DNA of 64,000 nucleotides from Eledone cirrhosa (Eukaryota): contig OZ024743.1 of NCBI GenBank assembly GCA_964016885.1, positions 38,502,001 to 38,566,000 of the forward strand, written 5' to 3'. Numbering within the stretch: position 1 is the stretch's first letter; the number at the start of each line of letters is the position of its first letter. Under the pieces are notes generated by a model, which saw only the letters and a list, made by a program, of their open reading frames with translations, had not been told where the DNA came from and ran no database searches. The translations under genes were made by a program, and so were the position numbers. Below, in pieces: positions 8,280-47,488 of this stretch.

Positions 8280-9025
8280 CATACATATATATATATATAT
8301 ATATATATATATATATATATATATATATATATATATATATATATATATATATATATATGTAGGTGTGTGTGTGTGTGTGTGTGTGTGTGTGTGCGTGTGT
8401 ATGTATATATATACATATATATATATATATATATATTTATATATATATATATATATATATATATATATATATATATACAGAGTGCGTGTGTCTGTGTGTG
8501 TGTCTGTATATATATATATATATATATATATATACAGACACACACATAGACACACGCACTCTGTATATATATATATATATAAATATATATATATATGAGT
8601 CTGTGCGTGTCTGTGTCTCTTTATGTATATATATATATATATATATATATATATATATATATATATATATATATATATGTGTGGGTATGTGTGTGTGTGT
8701 GTGTGCATGTGCGTATATATGTATGCATCCACAGACCCTCCATCTCAACTCACCTTTTGAAAAGCAGAAGAACTGCGAAACTGGTAAAGAAACGAAATAA
8801 ATATATAACCCTGACTTTCTAATATATATATATATATATATATATATATATATATATATATATATATATATATATATATACAGAGTGTGTGTGTCTCTGT
8901 GTGTGTCTGTATATATGTATATATGTATATATATATATATATATATATATATATGAGTGTGTGTGTGTCTGTGTCTCTTTATATATATATATATATATAT
9001 ATGTATGTGTGTGTGTGTGTGTGTA
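8280..9025. repeat. Compound (TA)n/(TG)n tract with short inverted cagagtgcgtgtgtctg units and a PLE pLTR fragment
   Basis: Visible repeats; 8729-8800 is the reverse complement of ~16250-16323. Confidence 0.85.
8753..8790 (+). ncRNA. Minimal type I hammerhead, U3-A8 core variant
   Basis: ctt TTGAAAA gcag-aagaa-ctgc GAAA c-tg-g TA aag. Confidence 0.6.
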
Positions 9026-9299
9026 ATTTTATTCATTAAACTTTTATTGCAGAATACATATGAATTTTTTGCCTGTTAGTTTTTTTTTCATGCTTCTTAC
9101 TCCTTTGTATTTGTTTATTGTATTTTTGTTAATGTCACTTCTATTGTTGTTTGCGTTGCATGTTTCTTGTTTCATATTTGTTATTACAGTGTATGTTAAG
9201 TGTAGTTTTGAAGTTAGGCTGTGATTCTTTTTTCCTTTAAGTTTCTGTTTCCTGTTTGAACATTTGTGTATAGTTCAGTGCAATATCATCAGGGTTATT

Positions 9300-9386
9300 A
9301 GTGGATTGGCAGTATCGTTAGAGGGTCGGACGATATGCTTTGCAGCATAGTTACGCCCCTTTACGGACTGAGTTCAAATCCAGCCT
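9300..9386 (+). mobile_element. tRNA-derived SINE, 5' part
   Basis: Box A-like TGGCAGTATCG and box B GAGTTCAAATCC. Confidence 0.75.
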
Positions 9387-43599: not shown

Positions 43600-45824
43600 A
43601 TGTGGAACAGCTCAAGGTCGCATAATCGACAGCTTCTCATACCACTCCGATATGGGGGCGCGTTTGATAATTTTTCCACTTCAGGGTGTATTGATGGTTA
43701 CTTTCCCTCAGTTGCCAGGTCTTGTTTGCAAGGGTAGTTACATAACGGTGCTGGGAATGTTTCATTGCGTAACAGTGTGTATAACAACGAGCTTTAAAAG
43801 TATTCCCAGTCGCTCCGATGTAATACCATTTCTGGTTGTCTGATTCCACTGTGCATTGGTAAACCAGGTTAGACTTCATACATTCATTTTGTAATGGACA
43901 GGTTTCAGGTAGGTGGCAGTTGCATTTCTTGTTATGGGCAACTTTGGCATTATTTGTGGGCTGCGATGCCTGAACAAGTGTGTTACGTTTTGTTTGCCTA
44001 TTAGCGGGTGGTTGTGTATTAGATATTCTGTTGTGTTCGGTGGTAATTGTGTTGTTATTGTTGTAAATTTGTGTTTTGGTGTTGTTATGTATCTTTTTAG
44101 CGTTAAGCATCTTAATGTGTGCTTCTATATTTGGTGCCGTGGAGTAGGATAGTCTAATAGATTTAGTGTTAAGGATTTTGCTGTATCTATGTGAAACTGG
44201 AAAGTGCCTGTTTATTATTCTAAAGAAAGTAGAGGGTAGGTTAGTACTAATAGAGGTGTTAAATATGGGGTTATACCAAATATATTTTCTACTGCGTGAC
44301 TTGTTTGATTTCGATGTTGTACTTCTATTAGCCGTATACTTTGCAGTTCTATGCGTAAATGTGTGTATGCGTGTTCGTGTGTGCTTCACAGAGGCTTTCA
44401 TCTATATATTCTACTCTATCTAAGTGGCCTGCCTTGTCTAATGCGGTATTGTAGTATTCTGCATGTTCTTTGAAGATTTGCGGTTAGATGAGAGGCGGGA
44501 GATCCTAAGGGATATGTTGCGTGGAATGGATTTAATTATTGATAGTGGGTGGTTTGAGTTACAGTTGATGTATGCTAAGTTTTAATTAATCTTGTGAAAA
44601 GGTCTTATTACTCCCGTATTTAGGTTAAGCGTCACATCTAGAAAGTTAACTCTTTTAGTGCTATACTCGTACGTTATGCTAAGGTCTAGTTTTCCGAGAG
44701 TCTTTCTAATATTCTTACGGAGTCTTTCTATGCTCTGGTTATTTAGGTTCTTAACTAGGAGAAGGGCGTTGTCTCTGTAGATTCCACCGTGAAGGTCGCT
44801 AAACTCGCTTTGTAAACTATGGGCTATGTAAATACCTACTAAGTCTGTGACTTGAGCCGAGTCGTTAGCCCCCATCGTGATGTCAAAGTTATTTAATCTA
44901 TCCTTACGTTCCCAATAGGCGTTTTCAAATTTAATTATTGTTTTCCTAGCAGCTAATATGATTTTTATCTCGTCGTCTGTTATGTCAGAATTGGCTTTGG
45001 CGAATGCTAAGGCTTTATCCAAGGTGTTGGGGGATATAGATGAGTAATAATCGTTAATGTCAAATTGTATAAACTTAGATACTTCTTTGTTAGCTATATT
45101 GTTAAACCATTTAATTGTTTCGGTAGCGTTACCCCATAGTTTAATCACTAGTTTATTCTTCATTTGTGCTATCACTCTGTCTAATATATGTTTACTAATT
45201 TTCCCGATGTCCGATTTGGATAGGCATATAAGTCTAATAGTGGGGTTATAATCAAAATTTACCTTGTGGTCTTTGAGGTTAAATGTGGGGGTACATGGCT
45301 TAAGTGGCTTCGTTCTGTCGTCTATTCCTAGGTGTTTGACTATATTGTGTGCCTCGTTGTTGATGTTTATCAGTGCCGCCTCATTTGTTTTTTTGTATTT
45401 CCTATGTAATTCTTTCCGTATGAAGCTATTGTATGTATTAACATCCATCGTATACACAGTTGATGTTTTGTCCGCTTTGACAATAATTCCATTGGGGGTT
45501 CGCAGCTTTTTTATGAATGTATTTATGTCATTCTGGAGTTTATTATTCCTCCGCTTTTTGAATTTGATATTCATAATCATCTTCAGTAAGTCCTGTTCAA
45601 AGGCATCCAGTTGAGGGTTGGTAGGTGGGTTTATACACGATTTGAAGCCGTATGTTTCCTTGTTATATTCCACGGTGCGCCATTACGTCCTTTGTCGAAA
45701 TGGAAAGTTTTCCATCTAACTCTGCGTATAAAGTCGTTTGTTCGCTGTATCATCCCGAGAGTATAATCCTTTCTCCGAGGTATAGGAATGTTCTTTAGGG
45801 ACATACCTATGTAATGCTTTTCAA
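43600..45824 (-). pseudogene. PLE RT plus GIY-YIG endonuclease, frameshifted (probably Hydra-type clade)
   Basis: SLKNIPIP..RVRWK; VKADKT; FDINDYY; DITMG..DLVGIY; YRDN (YRDD mutated); NFLDVTL; SNHP; CNCx5CPL..C; LVY..YIG; KW; CRLC; CNH in the inverted copy; several 1-bp frameshifts. Confidence 0.85.
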
Positions 45825-47386
45825 TAGTAGTACCGTATGTTTAGGTGGTTGCTCGATCGATAAGGAGCCTGTAGTTAGAGAAGCAAAAAATTGCTTATTG
45901 TGATCCAGTTCGTGGTTAAGAAAGCCAGTTTCACGGATGGTTTCAACGCACGGTTAGGGGTAACTCCACAAGTTTGTAAGAATTCCGTTCAATCTTGGAG
46001 TATAAAGTATAAAAGAGAAAACACAGGTAAGCATTAAGAGAAGGATTTAATCCAGGTATTTACGACCGTTTCATTGGTAAGTACAACATCAAAACACCCA
46101 AAACACCAAAACACAAATTTACAACAATAACAATACAATTACCACCGAACACAACAGAATATCTAATACACAACCACCCGCTAATAGGCAAACAAAACGT
46201 AACACACTTGTTCAGGCATCGCAGCCCACAAATAATGCCAAAGTTGCCCATAACAAGAAATGCAACTGCCACCTACCTGAAACCTGTCCATTACAAAATG
46301 AATGTATGCAGTCTAACCTGGTTTACCAATGCACAGTGGAATCAGACAACCAGAAATGGTATTACATCGCAGCGACTGGGAATACTTTTAAAGCTCGTTG
46401 GTATACACACCGTTACGCAATGAAACATTCCCAGCACCGTTATGTAACTACCCTTGCAAACAAGACCTGGCAACTGAGGGAAAGTAACCATCAATACACC
46501 CTGAAGTGGAAACATTATCAAACGCGCCCCCATATCGGAGTGGTATGAGAAGCTGTCGATTATGCGACCTTGAGCTGTTCCACATCTTAAGTTCAAAGAA
46601 TAGGTTCCTCAACAATACAATTGAGAGATCAATTTATTGTAACCATAGACTCAAGGAGAAATTTTCGCACTACAAATCGAACGCTTAACCTTTTACTACC
46701 AACTGACAAACTGCATATACTTAGACTTTATACCCTCTTATATCTAGACCCTTTAATTACCCACAAAACCATACATATATCCCCCCCTTCTCCCTCATTC
46801 CTCTTCTATTTCTTCGTTTTCTTCTTTCCCTCCCCCTTCTTGGCTATCTTTTCTTTTCTTCCTTCTGACCCCCTTCTTTGCTTTTATTTTTGTCATTATT
46901 ATCTTTATTTTTTATTTTTTTATTATATATATATATATATAAATATATATATATGTGTGTATATGTGTGAGTGTATGTATGTATATATATATATATATAT
47001 ATATATATATATATATATATATATATATATATATATATATATTATATGTATATGTGTTTGTGTGTGTATATATATGTATGTGTTTGTTTGTGTGTATATA
47101 TATATATATATATTTATCTCTTTATATCTCACCCACCCTCTCTCTCTCTCCCTCTCTATCCATCCCTCCCACTATTATCTATTTAATTCTCTTTAACTCA
47201 CTACACTCCACGACATGATGTCTGCTATCAAAACTGACCCAAGAATCCTTCCACCTCTACCCCTACCTCCACCTCAGTTTGTCATTCTACTTCCTACCTC
47301 TTCCCCCTTCCTCTCTCTCTTAGTAAATACAATTCCAAATAAGTGTTTTTCTCTATATATTAAGAACTATTTCAAGAGTAACTCAC

Positions 47387-47488
47387 TATTTTGAAAATTT
47401 GGACTGTGAACAACAATTATAATTGAGTGGCTGCTATTTGCAGTATAGCAATATAAGGTTGCACTTACCAATGAAACGGTCGTAAATA
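47387..47488 (+). ncRNA. pLTR hammerhead with U3-A8 core and ~75-nt stem II; twin at 42883-42984 (-)
   Basis: tatt TTGAAAA t-ttgg...ccaa-t GAAA c-ggtc-g TA aata. Confidence 0.65.

Follow-up and report, generated by a model that had tools for sequence, protein, structure and literature searches.

When both nucleotides of the C3–G8 pair in a hammerhead ribozyme core have changed together, to U3 and A8, has the ribozyme been kept or abandoned? The question is raised by a 64,000-nt stretch of Eledone cirrhosa DNA (assembly GCA_964016885.1, contig OZ024743.1, positions 38,502,001 to 38,566,000 of the forward strand; hereafter the window, whose own numbering we use), in which a preliminary description had pointed to six motifs with the core UUGAAAA in place of CUGANGA, in two repeat families (here A and B) taken to be Penelope-like elements (PLEs). 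Judged from sequence, these appear to be type I hammerheads in the 3′ repeats of PLEs in which U3–A8 has replaced C3–G8, and it is probable that a weak, partner-dependent self-cleavage has been kept. Selection to keep nucleotides 3 and 8 paired is the reading that we favour, with good though far from complete confidence.

Read from the sequence, TTGAAAA lies in all six places given earlier (8757+, 15781+, 16289–16295−, 37335+, 42974–42980− and 47391+), and GAAA..GUA is, as described, intact in four motifs (8757, 16295, 42980 and 47391), with GAAA mutated in the other two (GCAA at 15781, GGAA at 37335). The motifs, together with a truncated third hammerhead of family B, are:

8754..8789, plus strand: family A motif; core 8757–8763 (U3 8757, A8 8762), helix I of only 3 bp, helix II of 4 bp, a near-palindromic helix III, unchanged GAAA and A17 at 8786
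15778..15814, plus strand: diverged relative of family A; core 15781–15787, GCAA in place of GAAA, helix I made of A–U pairs throughout, A17 at 15811
16262..16299, minus strand: best-preserved family A motif; core 16295–16289, helices I and II of 4 bp each, helix III palindromic around a 2-nt centre, A17 at 16266
37332..37367, plus strand: decayed family A motif, likely inert; core 37335–37341, GAAA changed to GGAA, helix II decayed and partly broken
42883..42984, minus strand: family B motif of the main copy; core 42980–42974, 75-nt helix II region, A17 at 42887
46057..46087, minus strand: remnant (3′ part) of a third hammerhead of family B, truncated within helix II, in the partial terminal repeat at the main copy's 5′ end (45872–46087 matches 47458–47673 at 98.6%)
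47387..47488, plus strand: family B motif of the inverted copy; core 47391–47397 (U3 47391, A8 47396), U.U 47398/47472, 4-bp helix II base (47399–47402 with 47468–47471) closing a long imperfect hairpin, GAAA 47473–47476, helix III self-complementary, A17 at 47484

The order of core letters expected of a hammerhead (N3 U4 G5 A6 N7 N8 A9..G12 A13 A14 A15.1..U16.1 H17) is present at 8757, 16295, 42980 and 47391, and is altered by one GAAA letter each at 15781 and 37335. Nucleotides 3 and 8 could form a Watson–Crick pair, U3–A8, in six of six motifs, and under a relaxed descriptor helices I, II and III can pair in five of the six, helix III as a dimer only. The family B motifs depart from the plain form in the 75 nt between core and GAAA, in a U.U mismatch at 10.1/11.1 and in a 4-bp A/U helix I. 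A point missed in the preliminary description is that nucleotide 17 is A in all six.

Since TTGAAAA is a common heptamer in the window (42 matches against 21 expected, six of which had been singled out), the case depends on the surrounding anatomy. A strict hammerhead descriptor found two U3A8 motifs (8757 and 16295), and none in 30 shuffles. A relaxed descriptor, written after the motifs were known and allowing a U.U opening, a long helix II and one GAAA change, found 16 hammerhead-like sites, where 20 block shuffles gave 0.75 per window on average; it passed five of the six U3A8 motifs, 37335 being too decayed, and the core states were U3A8 in five sites, C3G8 in ten and U3C8 in one (1210+, probably a chance match), with neither U3G8 nor C3A8. 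The full hammerhead anatomy of the U3A8 motifs thus exceeds chance, and their reading as type I hammerhead motifs is borne out. The six do not amount to six pieces of evidence, as had been implied: they come from no more than three lineages (A, B and the diverged motif at 15781), and the two B motifs, 42980− and 47391+, belong to the main and inverted copies of one composite insertion (46087–42827 on the minus strand; 46088–47673) and are therefore counted once.

The assignment of family B to the PLEs is well supported by the frames, clade motifs and insertion marks of its two copies:

42827..46087, minus strand: main copy, a broken Hydra-clade PLE; reverse transcriptase (RT) frame 45682–44585, thumb/linker/GIY-YIG frame 44401–43640, then a 3′ untranslated region (UTR) with a microsatellite, the hammerhead and a 3′ end at (TA)n
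46088..47673, plus strand: inverted, 5′-truncated copy; frameshifted endonuclease end at about 46252–46685, 3′ UTR, hammerhead and a 129-nt tail past the 3′ end at 47544

The translations, interrupted by stops and frameshifts, carry YRDN at the RT active-site motif, RWK, DKT, a linker of the form CxCX5C and, around the endonuclease end, CxxC and CxH. The last five characterize the Hydra clade (Craig et al., 2021, PMC8557442, section 11). The clade call rests on these motifs and on a by-eye comparison with Hydra-1_Obim. At E ≤ 0.001 the protein has 163 homologues, the top named one being from Argonauta hians; Pfam gave no match on the PLE frames of the window, and no relatives of the RT or endonuclease were found in viral contigs. 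The insertion has a partial tandem repeat, an inverted 5′-truncated copy, a tail and a (TA)n target, as PLE insertions do. In place of a canonical CUGANGA hammerhead, its 3′ repeat has one with a UUGAAAA core and a helix II spacer of 75 nt; the family B hammerhead is a variant in the place expected for Hydra-clade elements, and it matches published Hydra-clade hammerheads in its post-endonuclease position, U.U at 10.1/11.1, palindromic helix III and A17.

Given such a spacer, the B motif might be a chance join of TTGAAAA with a GAAA..GUA 75 nt away. The abundance of the heptamer speaks for this, as do the spacers of only 10–28 nt in 60 related motifs, the failure of a model trained on C3G8 motifs to find B, and the fold z of the whole motif, which is only −0.85 and 0.16. 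On the other side, the motif is located where Hydra-clade elements have their hammerhead and no better core exists there; helix I, the U.U with 4 bp of helix II, and helix III are all in register; the 75-nt spacer folds into a single hairpin, imperfect and with 4 bp at its base (z −2.5, 4 of 200 shuffles); and other families in the window have spacers of 31, 35/36 and 60 nt with C3G8 cores. We consider a chance join very improbable.

We next turn to whether U3–A8 is a property of family B or of the copies in the window. Contigs from four of 11 sequencing runs were aligned to 47180–47660 at 80% likeness, the core being covered in runs X1, X4 and X7. Among 900 contigs of run X1, possibly the window's own source, no alternative letter was found at 47391 or 47396 at three or more reads in 100, and the single contigs that cross the core in X4 and X7 are identical to the window there. 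With no other letter at positions 3 or 8 in the X1 contigs, U3–A8 is the standard form of family B; the earlier claim that the family consensus is UUGAAAA and not CUGANGA is upheld for B, and in family A U3A8 is present in all four copies in the window. The long spacer is likewise standard, about 6% having lost 1 nt and 3% showing a single change. The B copies are mostly 95–99% alike, and no covariation can be obtained from them. Their loose ends run into (TA)n at 47544 and near 47673, giving two 3′ ends that match the tail of PLEs (PMC11167929).

How the pair changes among relatives was followed in loci gathered with an alignment of 10 endonuclease matches, namely 79 metagenome loci (the best 80 of 559 being kept) and 27 genome-bin loci, in which 900 nt behind the endonuclease were scanned without regard to the core letters. 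A motif is present in 70 of the 106 loci (67 C3G8, two U3A8 and one A3G8). Collapsed to 60 distinct motifs, with spacers of 10–28 nt, these comprise 57 C3G8, two U3A8 (L070:2096–2145 and L071:1241–1286), one A3G8 (L075:1253–1299; all three on metagenome contigs with Hydra-like elements) and no U3G8 or C3A8. The remaining 36 loci have no motif in the 900 nt scanned; a covariance model trained on the 57 C3G8 motifs, and so biased toward C3G8, gave 37 matches in those loci together with L070, L071 and L075 (33 C3G8, the same two U3A8, the same A3G8 and one truncated), adding no new variant. The claim of a double change without U3G8 or C3A8 singles therefore holds both in the related set and in the window scan, and the count, small as it is (60 motifs with two doubles and neither of these singles), favours a kept 3–8 pair; if L070 and L071 are independent, Fisher's test gives p 0.0006. 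All three helices show covariation in the 57 C3G8 motifs, where 172 cells are changed on both sides against 47 in shuffles, in an alignment chosen by a descriptor that itself requires pairing. U.U is present in 25 of the 60 motifs and A17 in 40. Nucleotide 17 is A in L070 and U in L071, so that A17 is not visibly avoided with U3. In a quick-method tree of 65 rows the three U3A8 rows stand apart, family B on a long branch.

Other departures in this set are C at position 4 in L031 and L043 and G17 in L006. The 27 genome-bin loci (L080–L106) are Hydra-like endonucleases in bins labelled bacteria, one bin holding more than 12; they are probably animal DNA in those bins.

Is family A a second PLE family, as the preliminary description assumed? 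Besides the motifs, its sequences in the window are:

16118..16335, minus strand: family A unit, with about 40 nt upstream, the hammerhead and about 145 nt of 3′ sequence up to (TA)n
37295–37498, plus strand: family A piece
36435–36617: family A 3′ pieces as an inverted pair in (TA)n
47708–47800: family A 3′ pieces, again as an inverted pair in (TA)n
8729–8826, plus strand: family A piece

The ends resemble those of PLEs, with a hammerhead near the 3′ end, two 3′ ends that recur some 70 nt from each other (at the equivalents of 16186 and 16118), as in a PLE tail, inverted pairs and a microsatellite target. Membership of the PLEs is not shown by this, as tblastn and a profile of 121 Hydra-like proteins (Hydra-like queries only) found no RT or endonuclease beside the copies; Pfam gave no match on read-through frames upstream of 16295 and 15781, copies that may be 5′-truncated. 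Family A could instead be a short non-autonomous unit, like a retrozyme or a short interspersed nuclear element (SINE), or the terminus of a family B-related element. In that case U3–A8 would not represent two independent fixations in two PLE families, an outcome compatible with a kept 3–8 pair. We regard this as possible, though less probable than its opposite. The four A motifs share only about 27–40 nt upstream of the core, the protein searches around them were negative, their motif pattern has no match in metagenome contigs, and A and B are alike in N7 = A, A17 and a U–A at the base of helix I. Speaking for separate PLE families are the (TA)n targets, inverted pairs and paired 3′ ends of A; flanks no more alike between A and B than shuffles (280–942 of 1000 upstream, 521 and 578 of 1000 downstream); and the centre of helix III, which is 2 nt in A against 4 nt in B and at least 4 in all 57 aligned Hydra motifs. 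The head-to-tail tandem monomers expected of a retrozyme are not seen, family A copies being dispersed or inverted.

Within family A, the motif at 15781 is related to 16295 in the upstream 40 nt (score 32, 0 of 1000 shuffles), and the downstream alignment is no better than chance. Its helix I and II letters differ from those of 16295 on both sides, and U3 and A8 are retained; going by these letters, it is the best evidence in the window that the U3–A8 pair may have outlived other change.

Two further ideas about family A were set aside. Common descent of A and B through a shared upstream 7-mer and 3′-end motif was rejected, being not above shuffles (a pattern search built on the shared sequence matched family A alone), and a reading of the core UGA as the stop codon of a decayed family A frame was dropped, having no protein support.

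How, then, might a U3–A8 hammerhead work? The helix III segments are computed to form self-duplexes of −5 to −10 kcal/mol and, being self-complementary and too short for a monomer, would lead tandem copies to dimerize. We suggest that in tandem transcripts two copies may pair through helix III, that U3–A8 would take over from C3–G8 in bringing nucleotide 8 into place within the active site, and that the RNA would be cut after A17 (47484, 42887, 16266 and 8786), probably with help from the element's own protein, as reported for an Anolis element. The change may have been fixed in the master element of each lineage and then copied, likely through two transitions (C3 to U by way of a U3.G8 state, then G8 to A), genomic copies decaying afterwards (15781 and 37335).

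Several observations weigh against selection for the pair. In single copies the predicted pair probabilities are 0.25–0.96 for helix II and only 0.00–0.10 for helix I; the hammerhead fold of family B lies 5.5 kcal/mol above the minimum; and U3 can pair with A17, extending helix I with a gain of 1.6–1.7 kcal/mol. The analogous C3–G17 pair is the accepted cause of the 8- to 300-fold slower cleavage of G17 hammerheads (PMC3884650). Because of the U3–A17 pairing, activity below that of C3–G8 motifs is predicted, and it is likely to be low or protein-dependent. In the Anolis PLE, hammerhead mutants were without effect on insertion in vitro (PMC11167929). The near-identity of the B copies implies a single fixation event in a young family, and family A lacks a protein link. 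A single origin is not rejected by approximately unbiased (AU) tests on 26 rows, either for L070 and L071 (p 0.37) or for these with family B (p 0.088), so that independent origins of U3–A8 lack support; if there was one event, the Fisher argument drops to about 1 in 59. Singles do exist, a Saccoglossus PLE motif being listed with U3G8 in the 2014 supplement (PMC4209133), and ten ordinary C3–G8 hammerheads in the same window call for caution. Selection for catalysis, the explanation first offered, can only be inferred, and it is weakened by the U3–A17 alternative and by the dispensability of cleavage in another PLE.

These points bear in part on the main rival, that the motifs are hammerhead fossils in which cleavage is no longer selected, U3 and A8 being transitions toward A+T fixed by drift in the master element of a relaxed motif. 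It gains from the competition of U3–A17 with U3–A8, from the weak helix I and from insertion without cleavage in vitro; moreover, both changes (C to T and G to A) occur in a window of 36% GC, and Naiad elements spread without canonical hammerheads. Yet in B and 16295 the rest of the core, the U.U opening, helices I and II and a palindromic helix III have all been retained; the same double, not singles, is found in L070, L071 and Schistosoma mansoni; and ten other hammerheads in the window keep C3G8, which argues that base bias alone is not driving the change. We therefore hold drift to be unlikely, and selection to keep the 3–8 pair the best account.

It is also conceivable, although we think it doubtful, that the Hydra-clade hammerhead is off by default, U3 being held by A17 until freed by a second copy or by protein, with the 75-nt hairpin as a handle. 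Equally speculative is the extension of this proposal to a long-armed class, helix II being lengthened in four families of the window (31, 35–36, 60 and 75 nt).

Searches that require CUGANGA had been expected to miss such motifs, and they do. Rfam returned no hammerhead among 142 matches at E ≤ 1, giving only microsatellite-driven microRNA and small nucleolar RNA matches, and the model of 57 C3G8 Hydra motifs found none of the six at E ≤ 10, though it found L070 and L071. Misses by covariance models are to be expected with variant cores that have other helix lengths, but they are misses nonetheless; CUGANGA and short-loop descriptors under-count PLE hammerheads.

The window holds further hammerheads, all with C3G8 cores. 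At 23613–25117 a 310-bp tandem array, inverted mid-way and lying in (TA)n, contains four complete type I motifs (23829−, 24139−, 24587+ and 24897+) with a U.U opening and palindromic helix III; its tandem monomers are those expected of a retrozyme, and it looks like a non-LTR (long terminal repeat) retrozyme. A head-to-head inverted pair at 25276–25656, 83% alike, has its cores at 25414− and 25518+; its helix II, 60 nt long, folds as a hairpin in either copy (−15.4 and −16.5 kcal/mol). Within 42145–42796, a second Hydra-like RT fragment (42320–42664+, 35% identical to family B) lies between inverted repeats with a 31-nt helix II and an 8-bp helix I, the hammerhead at 42252− being intact and that at 42689+ decayed. 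Inverted repeats at 31477–32106 and 36674–37024 carry hammerheads at 31741−, 36780− and 36917+, with a 35–36-nt helix II and the same 8-bp helix I as 42252. The motif at 41963–42015+, with a U.U opening and a long palindromic helix III, is the top match of the Hydra model (27.8 bits).

Among other repeats, 39775–39953− and 17750–17904+ are related, and 39953− has CUGACGA followed by a long hairpin and GAAA, but lacks a UH site where one is normally found. At 51000–63300 and 28248–29611 are decayed frames of non-LTR retrotransposons that match RVT_1, among them a 3.2-kb tandem duplication (55415–58610 with 58745–61975, 89% alike). A dispersed repeat of 150–200 nt (9301–9385, 18595–18779, 20414–20611, 21569–21759, 37085–37248 and 40615–40760) may resemble a cephalopod SINE.

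Finally, considering known systems, the U3–A8 core is not new, being already in print. Natural U3/A8 covariation was described by Perreault et al. (2011, PMC3088659), where such variants are said to have been active in vitro in earlier work and U10.1–U11.1 is also described; the covariation is the same as here, and the section on the variant does not cover PLEs or the present host group. Cervera & De la Peña (2014, PMC4209133) reported U3–A8 in Cercyon PLEs of S. mansoni, with a descriptor of its own already in use and about 1,300 hits, and low, dimer-dependent cleavage of minimal PLE hammerheads in vitro. The Cercyon motifs are like ours in being type I hammerheads in PLE terminal repeats, with U3–A8, a palindromic 15.2–16.2 and no clear loop–loop contact, and the supplement of that paper lists a PLE-linked motif with the identical UUGAAAA heptamer. 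They differ in lacking a helix III loop, in an extra base after A9 and in U17 in the listed PLE example, whereas in the U3A8 motifs of the window helix III is short and palindromic and nucleotide 17 is A; family A is without the extra base, and the helix II region of B is 75 nt long.

Poseidon PAc of Anolis (Frangieh et al., 2024, PMC11167929) likewise has a PLE repeat hammerhead upstream of the open reading frame (ORF) start, and two reverse-transcription start sites that give a tail, comparable to the two 3′ ends of A and B; the tail is 30–40 nt long there against about 70 (A) and 129 (B). Its hammerhead belongs to another PLE clade and has a C3–G8 core that has been assayed, cleavage being protein-assisted and the 3–8 pair partially rescued by G3C8. 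The Hydra-clade hammerheads (Craig et al., 2021, PMC8557442, File S2) share with B the position behind the GIY-YIG frame, U.U, a palindromic helix III, frequent A17 and (TA)n targets. All 25 Hydra families in File S2 have CUGANGA, the core that the descriptor required, and a short helix II, and B differs in both. Long helix II loops are listed there for two spike-moss PLEs, so that a long helix II has precedent. No paper reporting U3–A8 for Hydra-clade elements, or a long helix II in PLE hammerheads of cephalopods, was returned by a search of open-access PMC and bioRxiv. The long-armed helix II in four families of the window and the U3–A17 question seem worth a look, and if the U3–A8/A17 combination or the long helix II regulates cleavage, this would bear on the role of PLE hammerheads. 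Set beside these systems, only the 75-nt helix II hairpin of B looks unusual, and the window extends a variant published in 2011 and 2014 to one more host and to the Hydra clade of PLEs.

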